Of a DNA stretch of 64,000 nt, positions 1,109 through 56,939 are shown one piece after another. The notes beneath the pieces are model-generated. The model saw only the letters and a program-made list of their open reading frames with translations. It was not told the origin of the DNA and made no database searches. The stretch is from Minisyncoccota bacterium. Its GTDB lineage: Bacteria; Patescibacteriota; Minisyncoccia; Phycocordibacterales; CSBR16-193. The position numbers and the translations under genes were made by a program. Within the stretch, counting starts at the first letter, position 1; every line of letters starts with the position of its first letter. The DNA is taken from contig JBBDRA010000002.1 of NCBI GenBank assembly GCA_040905715.1, positions 3,746 to 67,745 of the forward strand. The letters are read 5' to 3'.

Positions 1109-2185
1109 TTAGAACGTAAACGCGTCTCGAATAAGTGACACGTCGACAGTGTCAATTTTCTGGTCGCTATTGACGTCTAGATTGTGCTCATCAGACAGTT
1201 CATCAAAACCGGTGAACCGCTCTCGGACAGCGTCCAAAAGGATCTCCCGAACACTGTCTTGATCCTCTTCTGAGAGTGAGTCAAAGTCAGTGATCAAGCC
1301 TACGTCTACAATGTTGACCTTTCCGTCTTCGTTAAGGTCATAGTCCATCTCCGGCTGATCAGGATCGAGGTTAAAACCGGTCTGATTGTCTCTGATCTCT
1401 TGGGCGATGGCGTCCTCGATCTCAGAGTCGGATATGTCTTCTTCCTGATCTTCTTCATCAGCGTCATCGTTGTCTTCATTTGTTGCTTCATCTTCATCAT
1501 CATTATTATTCGATGATGTTGTAGAGGCATCCTCTACATCCTCTTTTTCGTTATCTTCTTCGTCATTTGTTGACGTTGCTGTGTCATCGCTGTCATCATC
1601 GTTATTTTCCGACGATGCCGTCTCGCGAAGACAGGTTGCTTGAGCAAGAGCGGCGCGCGTACGCGGACCGATCTGACCAAAGCCGGTTGTTTCAGGAGAA
1701 CCGCTGTCGACAATGCCTTTGGCCTGCTGGAACTTCTGCACTGCCTCTTCGGTTATCGGACCGAAGTATCCGGTCGCTTCCGGATACTCAAAGAATCCCT
1801 GCTCTTTGAGTGATTTCTGAACCTGCTCGACTGTGGTTCCTGCATCACCTGCTCGAAGTGTTCGACCAAGCTCCAAGCACTGCATTACTTGTTTAGCCCG
1901 ATCGCTCGCTTGCTCAGGCAAACGGTCACCGAAACTTGGTGGGCCGGCAGCACCAGGTCGGTTACCCGCACCTTCTTGATCACTGGAGGTGGCATTTTCT
2001 TCCTCATCCGTTTCTTTATTCTGCCGCAACTCCTTGATCTGCTGTTGGATCTGAGTTATTTGATTCCGCAGCTGTTCGATCTGGCCGCTATTGCCCTGTT
2101 GGGCCTGACCGACAACAGGCACACCAATCAGCATTGCAACAACTACCACAAGAGCAAGTTCGGAGAATGTTTTAAATGTACTCAT
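1109..2185 (-). CDS. secreted protein with N-terminal signal/TM, a coiled-coil and acidic low-complexity region, a putative peptidoglycan-binding domain and a C-terminal dockerin-like double Ca-binding repeat
   Basis: Hydrophobic N-terminus ELALVVVVAMLIGVPVVG. A PG_binding_1-like segment reads TVEQVQKSLKEQGFFEYPEATGYFGPITEEAVQKFQQAKGI. The C-terminus holds two repeats, DLNEDGKVNIVDVGLITDF and DVNSDQKIDTVDVSLIRDAF, which match the dockerin DxNxDGxVNxxD pattern. Confidence 0.6.
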   Translation of the reverse strand: MSTFKTFSELALVVVVAMLIGVPVVGQAQQGNSGQIEQLRNQITQIQQQIKELRQNKETDEEENATSSDQEGAGNRPGAAGPPSFGDRLPEQASDRAKQVMQCLELGRTLRAGDAGTTVEQVQKSLKEQGFFEYPEATGYFGPITEEAVQKFQQAKGIVDSGSPETTGFGQIGPRTRAALAQATCLRETASSENNDDDSDDTATSTNDEEDNEKEDVEDASTTSSNNNDDEDEATNEDNDDADEEDQEEDISDSEIEDAIAQEIRDNQTGFNLDPDQPEMDYDLNEDGKVNIVDVGLITDFDSLSEEDQDSVREILLDAVRERFTGFDELSDEHNLDVNSDQKIDTVDVSLIRDAFTF

Positions 2186-2586: not shown

Positions 2587-2658
2587 GCGCCCGTAGCTCA
2601 ATGGTAGAGCGCGAAGCTTATACCTTCGTGGTTCCCGGTTCGAATCCAGGCGGGCGCA
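2587..2658 (+). tRNA. tRNA with anticodon UAU (putative tRNA-Ile decoding AUA)
   Basis: Folds by hand into a cloverleaf: 7-bp acceptor stem GCGCCCG/CGGGCGC, U8 A9, D-arm GCTC/GAGC, anticodon stem CGAAG/CTTCG with loop CTTATAC (U33, anticodon 34-36 = TAT), T-loop TTCGAAT and discriminator A. There is one C-A mismatch in the T-stem and CCA is not encoded. Confidence 0.7.
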
Positions 2659-2923
2659 CAAAATATGCGAAGCAGATTTTTGGTGTCTGCAAGGAGAGCA
2701 TTTCTGCTCTCCTGTCTGGATGAGAAAGGCGGAGCCATGTCGCACGGAGCGGAGCGAGTACGACGGGCGAGCCCGGCCAGGAGCCCACTTAGCGAATGAA
2801 GACCGAAGGGATGAGTGAGCTTAGTGAGCTGACGGCGAATCCAGGCGGGCGCACCAGACAATAATACAAAACAGCCTTGTGGTTAAACAGGGCTGTTTTT
2901 TGAAACTCTCATAAGACGATCAC

Positions 2924-5041: not shown

Positions 5042-5485
5042 ATGGCCTTGATCCAGAATAAGAAATTTCATCTTAACTTTGAAGCTCAAGAAACGTTTGA
5101 GGCGGGCATTGAACTCTTCGGCTTCGAAGTTAAATCGGTCCGCAACAAACTCGGCTCACTCGATGGCGCATATGTCATTGTCCGTGGTGGCGAGGCGTAT
5201 TTAGTGAACACATATATACCTCCCTACCAGCCGGCAAATTCCCCAGATGACTATGATCCGTATCGAACCCGACGCCTTCTTTTGAAAAAAAAGGAGATCG
5301 CGGAATTAGCCGGAGCAGAGCAACAAAAGCGATTGACAATCGTACCGAAATCGATGTATAATAGTCGAGGAAAGATCAAGGTTGAGATCGCGATCGCACA
5401 AGGAAAGAAAAAGTACGACAAGCGTGAAGACATCAAAAAGCGTGATATGAAGCGAGATGTAGAGCGCGACCTTAGAGACCTGTAG
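5042..5485 (+). CDS. smpB: SsrA-binding protein SmpB
   Basis: Reads ...NKKFHLNFEAQETFEAGIELFGFEVKSVRNKLGSLDGAYVIVRGGEAYLVNTYIPPYQ, with a tmRNA gene immediately downstream. The open frame begins at 4961; start chosen at the internal Met at 5042 to give a ~147 aa product. Confidence 0.85.
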   Translation: MALIQNKKFHLNFEAQETFEAGIELFGFEVKSVRNKLGSLDGAYVIVRGGEAYLVNTYIPPYQPANSPDDYDPYRTRRLLLKKKEIAELAGAEQQKRLTIVPKSMYNSRGKIKVEIAIAQGKKKYDKREDIKKRDMKRDVERDLRDL

Positions 5486-5519: not shown

Positions 5520-5970
5520 GGGGATGCCAGGCATCGACAGGGTTTGGCCTCTGGTATGTGCAAAGCAGAGGGTGCGAACTTCCTCTTAAATCCGCTCGCG
5601 TCTCTACGTGCAGACAAAACAGCACAAAAGGCAAAGTCTATCGTCTCACCATTCTTTGGTCAGAACGACTTTGCTTTCAGTTACGCTACAGCCTAACTCC
5701 GACGTCATGTCGGAGTCCCGACCTTCGCGTCGGGGCTGACGTCTACGATCTTGATATCTGATAGAGATCCGTAGGCGGTATAACCATCAGGTTCGGTTCA
5801 GCCAGTCGTCTCATGGTCGGACTTAAACAACGGGACTCGGTATCAGTAGATTTTGTCTATTTCATACTACTGATCACTTAAATCGCCTATTGGCGAATGG
5901 AGATAGACTACGCTTTGTAGACTCATATCAGACCACTCCTTGCACGTGGGTTCAACTCCCACCATCTCCA
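5520..5970 (+). ncRNA. ssrA: tmRNA (ssrA)
   Basis: 5' end GGGGATGCCAGGCATCGACAGGG matches the canonical GGGGNUG...UUCGACGGG. 3' end GTGGGTTCAACTCCCACCATCTCCA gives a T-arm plus an acceptor 3' strand CATCTCC that pairs with the 5' GGGGATG. It lies directly downstream of smpB. A candidate tag frame at 5610-5696 ends ...NDFAFSYATA-TAA. Confidence 0.85.
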
Positions 5971-5982
5971 CTCGACTCCGTA

Positions 5983-6013
5983 AACCCGCACTTTAGTAAA
6001 AGTGCGGGTTTTA
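5983..6013 (+). terminator. rho-independent terminator after tmRNA
   Basis: Hairpin AACCCGCACT-ttagtaaa-AGTGCGGGTT followed by TTTT. Confidence 0.6.
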
Positions 6014-6016
6014 CTT

Positions 6017-6066
6017 CGCTCGTGGCAAGCCACTCGACTCCGTAAACCCGACTAAGGAGTCGAGTG
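6017..6066 (+). repeat. direct repeat copy of tmRNA 3'-terminal sequence (CCACTCGACTCCGTAAACCCG) plus a hairpin
   Basis: 21 nt at 6030-6050 are identical to 5968-5988 at the tmRNA 3' end. They are followed by the inverted repeat CACTCGACTCC...GGAGTCGAGTG. Confidence 0.7.
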
Positions 6067-6105
6067 CCCTGAGCGAGGTGACGAGTCGAACGGGCCTGTT
6101 ACAAT

Positions 6106-6375
6106 ATGTTTATGTATTACATCTATATGGCACGAAATAAAACAAATTATCTTTACGTCGGTATGACCGACAATCCACACCGGCGACTTACGGAGCATAA
6201 CAACGGTAGCGGTTCCATCCATACTAAATCAGGAAGATTTTCCCTAGTTTTTATTGAAGAACACCAGACATTAGAGAAAGCCCGCCAGCGTGAAATACAA
6301 ATCAAAAAGTGGACGCGTGACAAAAAAGAGAAACTTATCACTCGATACAAACAAGGTCTCCCGACCAGACCATAG
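6106..6375 (+). CDS. small GIY-YIG nuclease family protein
   Basis: YIYMARNKTNYLYVGMTDNPHRRLTEHN contains the GIY...YIG core with the conserved Arg and Glu (GIY-YIG/URI domain). The gene is flanked by repeats of the tmRNA 3' end. Confidence 0.75.
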   Translation: MFMYYIYMARNKTNYLYVGMTDNPHRRLTEHNNGSGSIHTKSGRFSLVFIEEHQTLEKARQREIQIKKWTRDKKEKLITRYKQGLPTRP

Positions 6376-6446
6376 TCAACTTTAATCCAAACCTGTCTTT
6401 TGCGAATACATGGAGCAAAAAACGTAGTGACTGCGGGATCACTCCG

Positions 6447-6517
6447 CCCATCTCCACTCGATTCGACCTCGCACAGATCGGCCTCACTCGTGGTAAACCA
6501 CCTCGACTCCGTAAAAC
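6447..6517 (+). repeat. second degenerate copy of the tmRNA 3' end / att-like repeat
   Basis: CCATCTCCACTCGA at 6448-6461 matches 5962-5975 of the tmRNA. CACTCGTGGTAAACCACCTCGACTCCGTAAAAC at 6485-6517 matches 6017-6049. Confidence 0.65.
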
Positions 6518-6551
6518 AAGCTATGGAGCTAACTCTATAACAACTCTATTA

Positions 6552-7445
6552 TTAGTGCTCGTGACCGTGCCCCTCTTCCTCATGAGCATGATCGTCGTGC
6601 TCGTCGTCATACTCATGTATTTCTTCATCATGAAATTCCTCTTCCTCATGACTGTGATCATGTCCATGCAAATCTCCCTCTTCCCCATGGGAATGCACAG
6701 CAACCTGGTTAACTCCGAACATCAGAACTAACCCGACCAAAAACCATACGAGGTGTTGTCCGTGCTGAGTTTTTGTTTGTGAACTACGTACTGAATGCGG
6801 AATAAGATCAAAGAAAACCACGACCAGAAACGCTCCGGCGGCAATTCCCAAGACCGGTGTCTCAAGAACAGCAAAAAGATCCAACAGCAATATACCGCCG
6901 ATCGAACCAACCAGAATAGTGGAAGAAATGGCAAAATTAATACTAATTGCCTTCACAACTGAATAGCCGGCCTGGCGAAGTACGAAAAATTCAGAAACCT
7001 CCTGGACCAACTCGTGAACAAAAATACTGATCGCCGTGATCACCCCTAACGCCGAACTTACGGTGAAGGCTACTGCCAGAAGCACACCGTCACCTAGGTT
7101 ATGGATCGCATCACCCATAAGGATGCGACGCGCGTCGACCCTGGTGTGACTATGGGTTTCTTCATGTTCATCATGGTGGTGGTGAAAGACCGGCAGAAGC
7201 CAGAAGACAAACCAGATACCGATGGCCCCGACTGCAACCCAAAACAATCCTGAAAAGAGATTCGTAGCGACATGCAGGGTTTCATTAACTAATTCATACG
7301 AAACCACCAAAAACACACCGGCGGAAAAACTCACCAAAAACCGTAAATTCTTCTCGATAAACCACCCCGCACGGTTCCATATCGCCAACACACCGGTGAG
7401 CGAAGCGGCCATAACCAATAATGAATATATAAATACCTCAAACAT
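6552..7445 (-). CDS. zupT: ZIP-family (ZupT-like) divalent metal transporter with C-terminal His/Asp/Glu-rich tail
   Basis: Multiple TM helices, HNLGDGV and FVHELVQEVSEF ZIP signatures, and a C-terminal tail HSHGEEGDLHGHDHSHEEEEFHDEEIHEYDDEHDDHAHEEEGHGHEH. Start chosen at 7445 (MFEVF...), which has GAGGT upstream; the open frame extends to 7613. Confidence 0.7.
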   Translation of the reverse strand: MFEVFIYSLLVMAASLTGVLAIWNRAGWFIEKNLRFLVSFSAGVFLVVSYELVNETLHVATNLFSGLFWVAVGAIGIWFVFWLLPVFHHHHDEHEETHSHTRVDARRILMGDAIHNLGDGVLLAVAFTVSSALGVITAISIFVHELVQEVSEFFVLRQAGYSVVKAISINFAISSTILVGSIGGILLLDLFAVLETPVLGIAAGAFLVVVFFDLIPHSVRSSQTKTQHGQHLVWFLVGLVLMFGVNQVAVHSHGEEGDLHGHDHSHEEEEFHDEEIHEYDDEHDDHAHEEEGHGHEH

Positions 7446-56813: not shown

Positions 56814-56939
56814 ATTGTATCACCGGCAGACACACAGGGATCATGTCTATTGATAAAAGATCGTATATGCTATAAACATATAAGTTCGAAAGTGCCAGTT
56901 CACTCGTAGTAACCCACACTACCCCTAAGGAGGTGTGCA

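Follow-up and report, generated by a model that had tools for sequence, protein, structure and literature searches.

A compact cassette of roughly 0.5 kb, made of a very small GIY-YIG nuclease gene and a conserved hairpin-rich non-coding module, was identified at the 3' end of the tmRNA gene (ssrA) in a Ca. Paceibacterota MAG, where it appears to have displaced an older copy of that gene end. The same cassette is found in more than 80 other Paceibacteria, chiefly at the ends of tmRNA genes and less often at those of tRNA-Ala genes. It therefore looks like an undescribed site-specific selfish element and not a decayed genomic island. No description of it was found in the searchable literature on GIY-YIG, UPF0213, YhbQ and COG2827 proteins in connection with tmRNA, tRNA, or the Patescibacteria.

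The ssrA locus and its repeats

The window, which is the whole 64,000 nt stretch of DNA analysed, contains a full-length tmRNA gene, identified by the Rfam model RF00023 at 5520-5973 with 93.2 bits against a gathering score of 47 (model positions 1-374). ARAGORN did not find this gene. The features of the region, all on the forward strand except the last, are as follows.

5042..5485 (+): smpB, the partner gene of tmRNA (Pfam SmpB, E 5.6e-48; a called gene in locus L001, where L numbers denote the individual loci compared); context only and not part of the cassette.
5520..5970 (+): intact tmRNA gene, with acceptor stem GGGGAUG/CAUCUCC, T-arm GUGGG-UUCAACU-CCCAC, and the mature end at the discriminator A at 5970; CCA is not encoded, the next bases being CTC.
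5948..6059 (+): repeat copy 1, the tmRNA T-arm and acceptor 3' strand plus the left half of the module.
5969..5980 (+): block (i), CAC TCGACTCC G, which starts at the last acceptor C and the discriminator and is the 5' arm of the long-range inverted repeat P1; conserved in about 80 loci.
5982..6011 (+): hairpin hpA, a 13 bp perfect stem followed by TTTTA, the likely terminator of ssrA.
6019..6033 (+): block (ii), CTCGTGGCAAGCCAC, a nearly invariant mini inverted repeat GTGGY-AA-RCCAC.
6030..6050 (+): block (i'), an internal 21 nt perfect repeat of 5968-5988, in which the junction motif CCAC|TCGACTCC recurs after block (ii).
6056..6066 (+): block (iii), GGAGTCGAGTG, the 3' arm of P1, complementary to (i) and (i').
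6066..6095 (+): P3 unit, GCCCT-GAG...TCGA-(AC)GGGC, a hairpin with a covarying 5 bp stem.
6078..6105 (+): promoter-like site, GTGACG, a 16 nt spacer, and TG-n-TACAAT, abutting the start codon, which predicts a leaderless GIY mRNA, with a start near 6112.
6106..6375 (+): GIY-YIG nuclease gene of UPF0213/YhbQ type, single domain, 89 aa from 6106 or 87 aa from the ATG at 6112 as annotated by NCBI.
6376..6434 (+): spacer between the GIY stop and the second repeat copy, with no similarity to copy 1.
6435..6528 (+): repeat copy 2, a displaced and non-functional ssrA 3' end, with a T-arm-like GCGG-GATCACT-CCGC, the acceptor strand CATCTCCA and C, block (i) as TCGATTCG, a short hpA without terminator, block (ii) CTCGTGGTAAACCAC (6487-6501), block (i') CTCGACTCCGTAAAAC (6502-6517), and a decayed block (iii).
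6552..7445 (-): convergent ZIP-family transporter gene (Pfam Zip), marking the downstream limit; its stop is 24 nt after copy 2.

The repeats reported in the first-pass annotation are real and far beyond chance. The 21-mer CCACTCGACTCCGTAAACCCG occurs exactly twice, at 5968-5988 and 6030-6050, and ACTCCCACCATCTCCACTCGACTC (5955-5978) recurs at 6441-6464 with 3 mismatches; for both, no matches are expected in shuffled sequence. The annotation had described the distal repeat as two pieces, at 6448-6461 and 6485-6517. These are parts of a single colinear copy: 5948-6059 aligns with 6435-6528 at 77 of 92 identical positions (84%), scoring 81 against 24 +/- 4 for shuffles, with a maximum of 40. A covariance model built from the module also finds this second copy (6449-6555, 31.9 bits, E 2.7e-9) and nothing else in the 64 kb. 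The repeat similarity could have been explained by a conserved terminator alone, since one repeated stretch overlaps the terminator-like hairpin at 5982-6011. However, copy 2 lacks that hairpin and the repeated blocks are conserved in about 80 other loci, such that chance or a shared terminator is refuted as an explanation.

The repeat at 6030-6050 had been read as a boundary copy of the ssrA end, but it is an internal element of the conserved module and not an att boundary. It is the junction motif CCAC|TCGA repeated after the hairpin GTGGYAARCCAC, and CCAC(C)TCGAYY follows block (ii) in 11 of 81 loci, including this one.

The GIY-YIG gene

The ORF encodes a GIY-YIG domain (PF01541, 63.6 bits against a gathering score of 22.6, E 2.1e-17) and is the only such gene in the window. 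The exact 89 aa product is not on record, whereas the 87 aa form is. The closest matches by sequence are the UPF0213 proteins 1zg2 (E 1.5e-12) and 1ywl (E 1.8e-11), followed by SLX1 (E 0.013). The predicted AF2 structure (pLDDT 85) has the topology beta-beta-alpha-beta-alpha-alpha, and a Foldseek search with it finds 1zg2, 1ywl, and the SLX1 nuclease domain 6seh (rmsd 2.4 A over 69 columns). Residues Y15-V-G, R25, H29-N30, R60-E61 and others are invariant in one alignment of the family, and LY.G, R, HN, and REIQIKKW are at least 90% conserved in 83 sequences. The catalytic-type residues Y, Y, R, H/N, and E are therefore conserved, although the role of each is inferred by homology. The median dN/dS is about 0.11, indicating purifying selection on a working gene. 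At 87-89 aa, the protein is a catalytic domain only, with no DNA-binding or extended recognition domain.

There is a weak match to the PHROG 'homing endonuclease' family phrog_314 (E 9e-7), NCBIfam gave only a sub-threshold group-I-intron-endonuclease hit, no PADLOC defence family matched at E up to 0.01, and no relatives were found in IMG/VR viral contigs.

Distribution among the Paceibacteria

A total of 83 homologous GIY genes, with 44-87% amino acid identity, were examined. Of these, 63 are downstream of a tmRNA gene on the same strand and 10 are downstream of a tRNA gene, being 8 at tRNA-Ala, 1 at tRNA-Ile, and 1 at tRNA-Tyr. The median gap is 146 nt. Most of the remaining 10 follow a tRNA-like 3' fragment. 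The surrounding gene neighbourhoods differ between loci. In 78 of 80 genome loci the same module, scoring 40 bits or more, is directly upstream of GIY. The first-pass annotation would have been contradicted by GIY genes at unrelated loci without the repeats, and this is not what was found. The tRNA-associated GIY genes do not cluster together in the GIY comparison but are nested among the tmRNA-associated ones, which supports switching between targets.

Occupancy of the site is patchy. Of 41 ssrA loci chosen through SmpB similarity, only 5 carry the module, and the empty sites have CTCCAC followed by an ordinary terminator. Locus L102 is occupied, while L118, with an SmpB that is 92% identical, lacks the cassette and homology between them stops right after ...CTCCACTCGACTCGCCT. 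This is the closest pair with occupied and empty sites. No relative closer than 66% SmpB identity to the window genome was found in a scan of metagenomes. GIY and SmpB pairwise identities correlate at Spearman 0.29 and nearest neighbours agree in only 9 of 53 cases, thus GIY tracks host phylogeny poorly.

Decayed tmRNA 3' ends follow the GIY stop in 8 to 15 loci. A 14 nt PSSM of the tmRNA end scores 12 or more within 150 nt after the GIY stop in 8 of 82 loci, against 0-1 in five control windows, and 6 or more in 15 loci, against 1-4. A 24 nt ungapped PSSM was too strict for this purpose, since the remnants contain indels. Some of the displaced copies keep CCA and a native-looking terminator, and several start at or within 20 nt of the stop codon. 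In L080 the identity block starts inside the T-loop. Recognisable displaced ends are, however, present in only about 10-20% of loci, and are seen for only two of the ten tRNA-associated copies, there only as short matches (L056; the module start in L041). The loci are from MAGs and metagenome contigs, so misassembly of repeats cannot be fully excluded in individual cases; L039, for example, has an N gap.

Other GIY subfamilies in the same genomes interrupt or abut tRNA genes, and one of these is present or absent between smpB and ssrA in close relatives.

Structure of the non-coding module

The module (5969-6105 in the window) is built from covarying inverted repeats. The arms of P1, blocks (i) and (iii), were found in a search for inverted repeats and covary across loci, as does the stem of P3. 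In block (ii), the Y/R pair is CG in 47, UA in 40, and unpaired in 0 of 87 modules. Exact matches to CTCGTGGYAARCCAC occur in the window only in this block and at 6487-6501; a third match at 56903-56917 has 2 mismatches. A terminator-like hairpin is always present, being in hpA or in the spacer between (ii) and (iii) in other loci. Nested and inverted copies of the P3 unit occur in other loci, and a TATAAT-like box is at the same place as the promoter-like site in 62 of 83 loci. The repeated CCAY|TCGA motif co-varies at three sites.

The stems show no excess of G·U pairs (27 G·U against 26 A·C) and the hairpin units occur in both orientations. Both features argue against a plus-strand RNA structure and point to structure at the level of DNA. 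Against the 4227 Rfam covariance models, at E up to 10, only chance-level hits below threshold were obtained for the module, the best being Clostridiales-1 at 23 bits against a gathering score of 48. Hammerhead, K-turn, and other ribozyme-like readings of the GAG...UCGA unit were checked by eye and rejected because the core does not fit and the minimal loops are too short. An alternative fold was also considered, with block (i) pairing with block (iv) and block (ii) pairing with the GAGCG stretch, which RNAfold favours for some single sequences. The (i)/(iv) helix shows no double changes, while the columns taken for the second helix were out of register (31% paired), leaving this alternative unsupported but not properly excluded.

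Origin and inferred mobility of the cassette

The first-pass annotation proposed either a decayed island remnant or a minimal GIY-YIG homing-type cassette targeting the tmRNA gene. Its interpretation is partly supported: something has inserted at the ssrA 3' end and left a displaced copy of that end, and of its two options the minimal cassette fits the comparative data. The island remnant is not supported, since about 80 independent loci share the same compact architecture, the displaced 3' end often abuts the GIY stop codon, and no integrase recurs nearby. Only the GIY ORF is between the repeats in the window. No integrase family is among the 25 most frequent of the 75 Pfam families hit by 134 downstream neighbour ORFs, a listing that did not cover all of the singleton families.

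The best explanation, held with moderate confidence, is a site-specific selfish cassette of about 0.45-0.6 kb that occupies the 3' end of tRNA-like genes. In this view it has three working parts: a replacement for the gene's 3' end, running from the T-loop to the discriminator plus C, without an encoded CCA; a 100-200 nt non-coding module with a terminator-like hairpin; and its own promoter driving a probably leaderless 87-90 aa GIY-YIG nuclease of the UPF0213/SLX1 type. The original 3' end would be pushed downstream of the nuclease gene, where it decays. The arrangement in the window, its recurrence at other loci, and its patchy occupancy are observed, whereas nuclease cleavage, movement, and the mechanism of movement are inferred. 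It is likely that the nuclease would cut cassette-free target genes in or near the T-arm and acceptor DNA, perhaps as a structure-selective enzyme acting on hairpin or cruciform DNA. Repair would then copy the cassette from an occupied allele, using the body of the gene as the left homology arm and the duplicated 3' end as the right arm. The host would tolerate the insertion because the RNA gene stays intact and is terminated within the module. Against this, the bare catalytic domain is unlike known GIY-YIG homing enzymes, and the occupied gene keeps an intact T-arm and acceptor sequence, leaving unexplained how the element avoids cutting its own allele.

Duplication from the T-loop to the 3' end is also the signature of tyrosine-integrase att sites. 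It is possible, although unlikely, that the cassette is a miniature integrative element without its own recombinase, comparable to a cis-mobilisable element (CIME) or a MITE version of an integrative island, with GIY-YIG as cargo. A tyrosine integrase encoded elsewhere, for example by a phage or ICE that uses ssrA or tRNA attB sites, would then integrate it by crossing over in the T-loop. The gene is restored by element-borne sequence, which is reported to be the geometry of integrase att sites in tRNA and tmRNA genes (Williams 2002). A second, non-coding insert with the same geometry is at tRNA-Ile in the window, so some trans-acting machinery that targets T-loops may exist in these genomes. 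This insert has no Rfam family at E up to 10 and no blastn relatives among the fetched loci. However, no integrase recurs next to the 80 loci, with the scope given above, and none of the fetched flanks shows a full-size element. The conservation of GIY with the module and the strong purifying selection are unusual for passive cargo, no relatives were found in IMG/VR, and the strong preference for ssrA and tRNA-Ala, together with the three-site covariation of the repeated motif, suggests specificity encoded by the element.

It is also unlikely that the cassette is a domesticated or ancestral partner of ssrA, such as a nuclease or trailer element involved in tmRNA 3' maturation, termination, or a stress response, inherited vertically with many losses and with repeats as by-products of local recombination. 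Its position and orientation are fixed, and the GIY protein is highly conserved and on average more so than SmpB (median identity 60% against 51%), which would also fit a host-beneficial gene. Block (i) begins exactly at the discriminator base and pairs with block (iii), which could define a processing site. Against this are the 5 of 41 occupied loci, the occurrences at tRNA-Ala, tRNA-Ile, and tRNA-Tyr, the displaced gene ends, the weak congruence with SmpB, second copies away from any intact RNA gene (L088, L055), and the lack of a G·U excess in the stems and the occurrence of the hairpin units in both orientations, which argue against a plus-strand RNA structure.

In the window, copy 2 still carries the left half of a module. 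Therefore either this ssrA was already occupied when the present cassette arrived, or the unit was duplicated locally and the second copy later truncated. The latter, by tandem duplication or unequal crossing-over of the 487 bp unit (5948-6434) with subsequent deletion of the duplicated right half, is possible but doubtful, and is compatible with a mobile cassette. The copies are colinear at a constant period of 486-487 nt and share the lineage-specific string TCGACTCCGTAAA, with 6033-6046 identical to 6502-6515. Tandem multiplication of module units is seen elsewhere, with three copies in L038. On the other hand, by reading of the sequence, the copies differ by compensatory changes at paired positions, these being the T-stem G-T-G-G-G/C-C-C-A-C against G-C-G-G/C-C-G-C and the closing pair of block (ii) C-G against T-A, which are the two common family alleles. 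This is expected if copy 2 descends from a different functional allele and not from random decay of a duplicate. Duplication also requires a later deletion that ended 24 nt short of the ZIP stop codon.

Comparison with other elements

Genomic islands and prophages are integrated at ssrA or tRNA genes by tyrosine integrases, and islands often use the tmRNA gene (PMC11915505). These also target the 3' part of a tRNA-like gene, supply a new 3' end so that the gene stays intact, and leave the old segment from the T-loop to the 3' end as a direct repeat at the far side; sublocation at the T-loop is reported by Williams (2002). The cassette has direct repeats of the ssrA 3' end flanking the insert, but it has no integrase, is about 0.5 kb instead of many kb, has a GIY-YIG nuclease as its only protein, and recurs with the same minimal architecture in about 80 species.

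Free-standing GIY-YIG homing endonucleases of phages include I-TevI and T4 SegB (PMC13096335), the latter reportedly in the tRNA gene cluster (Brok-Volchanskaya 2008). Here too a lone GIY-YIG gene with its own promoter, predicted in this case, is next to RNA genes, is patchily distributed, with presence and absence at one homologous site among relatives, and is presumably inherited by break-and-repair. Those enzymes are 200-250 aa with a DNA-binding domain and have no associated structured module, while this is an 87 aa bare catalytic domain of the UPF0213 clade. Homing does not normally duplicate the target.

Group I introns in the T-loop of tmRNA genes, some with LAGLIDADG homing endonuclease genes (PMC11915505), exploit the same gene and sub-site, the T-loop being where the duplicated segment begins. 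No intron ribozyme was detected with Rfam even at E up to 10, and the tmRNA model aligns without interruption. The gene is kept working by replacement of the 3' end and not by splicing.

YhbQ and YazA have been placed in the Slx1 family (PMC7017083). The cassette protein matches UPF0213 proteins and the SLX1 nuclease domain best in sequence and predicted fold, but has no zinc-finger domain and no SLX4-like partner. No functional characterisation of bacterial UPF0213 proteins was found in the literature, and they are not known to have been reported in mobile cassettes at RNA genes.

REP/BIME elements with RAYT transposases, MITEs, and integron attC sites likewise involve short structured inverted-repeat units with covarying stems. 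Here the units are nested, tandemly multiplied, in both orientations, and tied to one small enzyme gene. They are confined to the cassette (about 40-fold enrichment) and not dispersed through the genome, and the enzyme is GIY-YIG, not an HUH/Y1 transposase or an integron integrase.

A further reading is not excluded but is considered unlikely. In this, the single-domain UPF0213/SLX1-like protein and its module of covarying DNA hairpins together form a new kind of self-mobilising element. A structure-selective nuclease would recognise hairpin or cruciform DNA formed by T-arm-like inverted repeats and by the repeated CCAY|TCGA junction motif, and would thereby insert a gene-end-replacing cassette into ssrA and tRNA-Ala genes. 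This would give the first biological role for the widespread UPF0213 (YhbQ/YazA) family and a mobility mechanism that needs neither a transposase, nor an integrase, nor an intron.

The ssrA and tRNA genes are classic landing sites for large integrase-borne islands and for group I introns. This cassette would be a third and much smaller way to parasitise the same sub-site, as a 0.5 kb unit that keeps the essential RNA gene alive by bringing a spare 3' end and a terminator. It links the uncharacterised UPF0213/YhbQ branch of the GIY-YIG superfamily to a concrete, testable activity and substrate, which are at present inferred. It defines a conserved structured DNA or RNA module, with clean covariation and an odd three-site coupling, for which no family exists. 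It also explains why tmRNA finders such as ARAGORN and annotation pipelines stumble at these loci in Patescibacteria. The preference for the two alanine-accepting RNAs, which share a ...UCCA acceptor end, offers a handle on how the target is recognised.

The tmRNA gene and its repeated 3' end

The window belongs to a Candidatus Paceibacterota MAG, and the 87-aa form of its GIY-YIG ORF is on record in GCA_040879545.1 and GCA_040881535.1. The features of the locus are as follows.

5042-5485, smpB
5520-5973, full-length tmRNA gene (ssrA), identified with Rfam at 93.2 bits
5968-5988 and 6030-6050, the two occurrences of a 21-nt repeat
5982-6011, terminator-like hairpin
6106-6375, GIY-YIG ORF
6435-6528, second copy of the tmRNA 3' end, aligning with 5948-6059

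The tmRNA gene was missed by ARAGORN. Its acceptor strand CAUCUCC ends at 5969 and the discriminator A is at 5970. CCA is not encoded, the next bases being CTC. The 21-mer CCACTCGACTCCGTAAACCCG occurs at 5968-5988 and again at 6030-6050, with 0 matches in 100 shuffles. The 24-mer spanning the T-arm 3' strand and the acceptor end recurs at 6441-6464 with three mismatches, where again 0 are expected. The first-pass annotation had described the downstream similarity as two pieces, but these belong to one colinear copy. Positions 5948-6059 align with 6435-6528 at 77 of 92 identical positions with a score of 81, against 24 +/- 4 for shuffles with a maximum of 40. The gaps in the alignment correspond to the terminator-like hairpin, which the second copy lacks. 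The ORF is a GIY-YIG domain (PF01541, E 2.1e-17) and is the only one in the window. The repeats of the tmRNA end around a GIY-YIG gene that had been noted from the sequence alone are therefore confirmed.

Distribution of the arrangement

All four of the more distant homologues found in the protein database (54-61% identity) lie in the same kind of place. Three of these (P0002, P0004, and P0005) are just downstream of a tmRNA gene in otherwise different gene neighbourhoods. The fourth (P0003, in locus L009; L numbers denote the individual loci retrieved) is cut off upstream by the contig end, but keeps the right end of the non-coding module upstream of the gene and a tmRNA-like 3' fragment downstream. 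A scan of one genome per GTDB species with an alignment of these proteins identified 143 relatives. The best 80 were retrieved, and all of these come from Patescibacteria, mostly Paceibacteria orders.

Nhmmer, ARAGORN, and Rfam were combined over 83 loci. A total of 63 have a tmRNA gene on the same strand upstream of the GIY-YIG gene (GIY), while in that position 8 have tRNA-Ala, 1 has tRNA-Ile, and 1 has tRNA-Tyr. The median gap between the RNA gene and GIY is 146 nt. Most of the other 10 start with a tRNA-like 3' fragment or are cut by a contig end. One homologue, in L042 (2465-3170) and 72% identical to that of L047, has no module and no RNA gene upstream, although a LOOT RNA (RF03000, 85 bits) lies about 290 nt downstream. 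The tmRNA and tRNA-Ala are the two alanine-accepting RNAs and share the acceptor end ...UCCA. Among the 33 tRNAs present in all retrieved loci, the characteristic motif follows only those that carry a cassette, plus one degenerate case.

Patchy occupancy

Loci containing ssrA were also chosen independently of GIY, using SmpB similarity in metagenomes. Of the 41 with a detectable tmRNA, only 5 carry the module (4 distinct sequences). The others show ...CTCCAC followed directly by an ordinary terminator. L102 is occupied, while L118, which shares 92% SmpB and 87% tmRNA identity, lacks the cassette, and homology between the two stops immediately after ...CTCCACTCGACTCGCCT.

GIY identity correlates only weakly with SmpB identity (Spearman 0.29), and nearest neighbours agree in 9 of 53 cases. 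The tRNA-associated copies are scattered among the tmRNA-associated ones, although the protein is short and the phylogenetic resolution is therefore limited. Given the distribution, it is less likely that the cassette is a domesticated functional partner of ssrA.

Displaced gene ends

A PSSM built from the last 14 nt of the functional tmRNA genes scores 12 or more within 150 nt after the GIY stop in 8 of 82 loci, against 0-1 in each of five control windows. It scores 6 or more in 15 loci, against 1-4 in the controls. Several of these remnants begin at or a few nucleotides after the stop codon, for example in L040, L008, and L087. Some keep an encoded CCA (L040, L055) and some are followed by a native-looking terminator (L046, L087). 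In L080 the identical block (CCAATTCCGCCCATCTCCAC) begins inside the T-loop. The inserted unit is therefore only the module plus GIY, about 0.45-0.6 kb, and the duplicated segment runs from the T-loop to the discriminator plus C.

Duplication from the T-loop to the 3' end is also the signature of an att site, and mobilization in trans by a tyrosine integrase is thus the main rival explanation. Among 134 ORFs downstream of the cassettes, the recurrent families are housekeeping ones such as IF3, L20, and SmpB, with no integrase among the 25 most frequent of the 75 families hit.

The non-coding module

Between the RNA gene and GIY there is a conserved succession of blocks, as follows.

Block (i), CAY-TCGAYKC, beginning at the last acceptor C and the discriminator
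hpA, a variable hairpin
Block (ii), CTCRTGG-Y-AA-R-CCAC
A variable spacer
Block (iii), ...GARTCGARTG
Unit P3, G-Y-C-C-Y-GAG...UCGA-R-G-G-R-C
A TATAAT-like box, 0-9 nt before the start codon

A terminator-like hairpin lies either in hpA, as in the window, or in the spacer. On a MAFFT alignment of 24 compact modules, the structure consisting of P1, in which (i) pairs with (iii), hairpin (ii), and P3 is 95.2% paired. Eight pairs show double changes, covering 43 cells against 14.6 +/- 2.9 in shuffles, with 0 of 500 shuffles reaching the observed value. Slid controls are at most 38% paired. A covariance model built from that alignment finds the module at 40 bits or more directly upstream of GIY in 78 of 80 genome loci. 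In the window, it finds the module only at 5963-6108, plus the partial copy at 6449-6555. On the 87 aligned modules, the closing pair of (ii) is C-G in 47 and U-A in 40, with no exception, and the fifth pair of P3 is U-A in 47 and C-G in 39, although this alignment was fitted to the model and so leans towards the structure.

The P3-like units (N5-GAG...UCGA-N5') have many different complementary stems. They occur nested inside one another and in both orientations, and hpA is often an inverted unit. They are about 40 times denser in the module zone than elsewhere in the loci. Weak module or P3-like hits (20-28 bits) also lie on the opposite strand just upstream of the tmRNA gene in L054, L083, L084, and L089 (about 1860-2030, minus strand), for example GCCCC-GAGCTTGTCGA-GGGGC in L089. 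Non-Watson-Crick cells are 27 G·U against 26 A·C, where a plus-strand RNA structure would be expected to show a clear G·U excess. Together with the two orientations and the predicted promoter position, this favours, by inference, structure at the DNA level (hairpins or cruciforms on either strand) over an RNA element.

Three sites in the module alignment (A4) are coupled. The base after the discriminator (column 9; window 5971), the first G of GTGG in block (ii) (column 60; 6022), and the G of GAGTG in block (iii) (column 165; 6064) are C/G/G in 77 modules and T/A/A in 7, and T never occurs without both A's. The T/A/A state includes loci on a tRNA-Tyr and in separate GIY lineages. The 3' arm of (ii) (column 71; 6033) stays C throughout. 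This looks like three copies of one recognised motif, CCAY on one strand or the other, but could alternatively reflect alternative pairing partners for the gene end.

The module is also found in other configurations. It occurs as three tandem copies of about 138 nt in L038 (44-473), and as concatenated one-and-a-half units in several other loci (L015, L018, L035, L043, L055, L060). L039 has an N gap inside such a repeat, so assemblies may collapse or break at these sites. In L136 (4307-4637) a full module (91 bits) with a TATAAT box follows tmRNA, but it drives a very hydrophobic ORF of 64 aa (58 aa from the second ATG) instead of GIY-YIG. The module-plus-promoter platform can therefore carry other cargo.

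The GIY-YIG protein

The protein is a bare GIY-YIG catalytic domain of the UPF0213 (YhbQ/YazA) clade. PDB sequence hits are 1zg2 (E 1.5e-12) and 1ywl (E 1.8e-11), with weak hits to SLX1. The AlphaFold model, from only five sequences, has pLDDT 85 and pTM 0.71. Its best matches are the same two NMR structures and the SLX1 nuclease domain bound to branched DNA (6seh, rmsd 2.4 A over 69 columns). The GIY/YIG tyrosines, Arg, His-Asn, and the RE(I/L)QIKKW segment are conserved across 83 sequences. Between the closer pairs, dN/dS has a median of 0.11 and a maximum of 0.23.

A promoter-like site, GTGACG-16-TGnTACAAT, ends at 6105 and abuts the start codons at 6106 and 6112. A similar box is present in 62 of 83 loci. 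This predicts a leaderless mRNA, and would place the module outside the GIY transcript.

The two copies in the window SPECIFICALLY

Copy 1 is the functional ssrA end plus the module. The internal 21-nt repeat at 6030-6050 is block (i'), the junction motif CCAC|TCGA... recurring after hairpin (ii), as in ten other loci. Here it forms a local hairpin with (iii). Copy 2 (6435-6528) contains a decayed T-arm, the acceptor strand, block (i), a short hpA, block (ii), block (i'), and a decayed block (iii). It ends 24 nt before the stop of the convergent ZIP transporter gene. The C-terminus of this transporter (6552-6700, minus strand) is a His/Glu/Asp-rich tail (...HGHDHSHEEEEFHDEEIHEYDDEHDDHAHEEEGHGHEH), which produces the short direct DNA repeats detected at 6572-6698.

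Because copy 2 includes module sequence, this ssrA had a module before the present arrangement arose. It is possible that a new cassette displaced the 3' end of an already occupied gene, or that the 487-bp unit was duplicated locally and then truncated. On reading the sequence, the two copies differ by compensatory changes in the T-stem and in the closing pair of (ii), which favours descent of copy 2 from a different functional allele. However, they also share the lineage-specific string TCGACTCCGTAAA, and either route remains possible.

Similar second-order arrangements exist elsewhere. The motif of block (i) follows the GIY stop in L041, L062, and L072. L088 has two full cassettes, each followed by the same T-arm-like remnant, and L055 has a GIY-less module behind a third copy of the tmRNA end. 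L010 and L024 have an intact tmRNA, then another insert, then the displaced fragment with the cassette.

Other insertions at tRNA and tmRNA genes

The tRNA-Ile(TAT) gene at 2587-2659 of the window (region 2587-2900, plus strand) shows the same geometry as ssrA. Its last 18 nt, GAATCCAGGCGGGCGCAC (2642-2659, from the T-loop to the discriminator plus C), recur exactly at 2837-2854. The second copy is followed by CA, which completes CCA, and by a clear terminator hairpin (about 2871-2900). The 177 nt between the copies have no ORF, no Rfam hit, and no blastn relatives in the retrieved loci. By eye, they contain an imperfect inverted copy of the tRNA 3' end and a box GAGCCCGGCCAGGAGCCCACTTAGCGAATG. 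Several ssrA loci without GIY (L109, L112, L113, L114, L117, and L090, just after tmRNA) carry an inverted copy of the tmRNA 3' end after the native terminator, for example GTGGAGATGGG...GGGGCAACGAACC, together with a GAGCCGGGG..CTTAG box that resembles the tRNA-Ile insert. In L024 (55-230) such an insert lies between the intact tmRNA and the displaced 3' fragment with its GIY cassette. This may be a second, non-coding family of inserts of about 180-200 nt at tRNA-like gene ends.

Other GIY-YIG genes are found in similar places. In L031 (1439-2350), an array of tRNA genes is interleaved with three GIY-YIG genes. One 84-aa GIY of another subfamily starts right after the T-stem 5' strand of a truncated tRNA-Tyr-like pseudogene. 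A second is flanked by 19-bp inverted repeats (CCCCTCACCTAAAAAGATT / AATCTTTTTAGGTGAGGGG) and by a duplicated 5' end (GGGCCAGTAGC) of the following tRNA-Ala, and the third is the module-type cassette. A different UPF0213-like GIY-YIG gene lies between smpB and ssrA in L102 (1692-2126) and is absent from its relative L118, 92% identical (2769-2817). More distant GIY homologues occupy the same smpB-ssrA spacer in L090, L110, and L115/L116.

Mobility and relation to other elements

The sequence comparisons demonstrate site specificity for tRNA-like gene ends, patchy occupancy, replacement and displacement of the gene end, a conserved GIY-YIG gene under purifying selection, a conserved structured module, and no integrase among the most frequent downstream families. 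That the predicted nuclease drives mobility is, in contrast, inferred. In this view it would break empty targets in or near the T-arm and acceptor DNA, and repair would then copy the cassette, with the duplicated 3' end serving as the only sequence conserved enough across species to act as the right-hand homology arm. The module may provide termination for the RNA gene and the sites upon which the enzyme acts.

The cassette works like an integrative island in how it preserves the target gene, but no integrase was found between the repeats or among the most frequent downstream families. It resembles a free-standing homing endonuclease gene in size and content, but has no DNA-binding domain. It uses the same sub-site as the group I introns of the tmRNA T-loop (PMC11915505), but no intron ribozyme was detected with Rfam. 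Outside subscription-only literature, searches found no description of GIY-YIG cassettes at tmRNA or tRNA gene ends in Patescibacteria or elsewhere, and recent papers on tmRNA genes and on Patescibacteria tRNA introns do not mention them. The cassette is best placed among the site-specific selfish elements at tRNA-like genes, and there is a real, although small, chance that its mobility mechanism is new.
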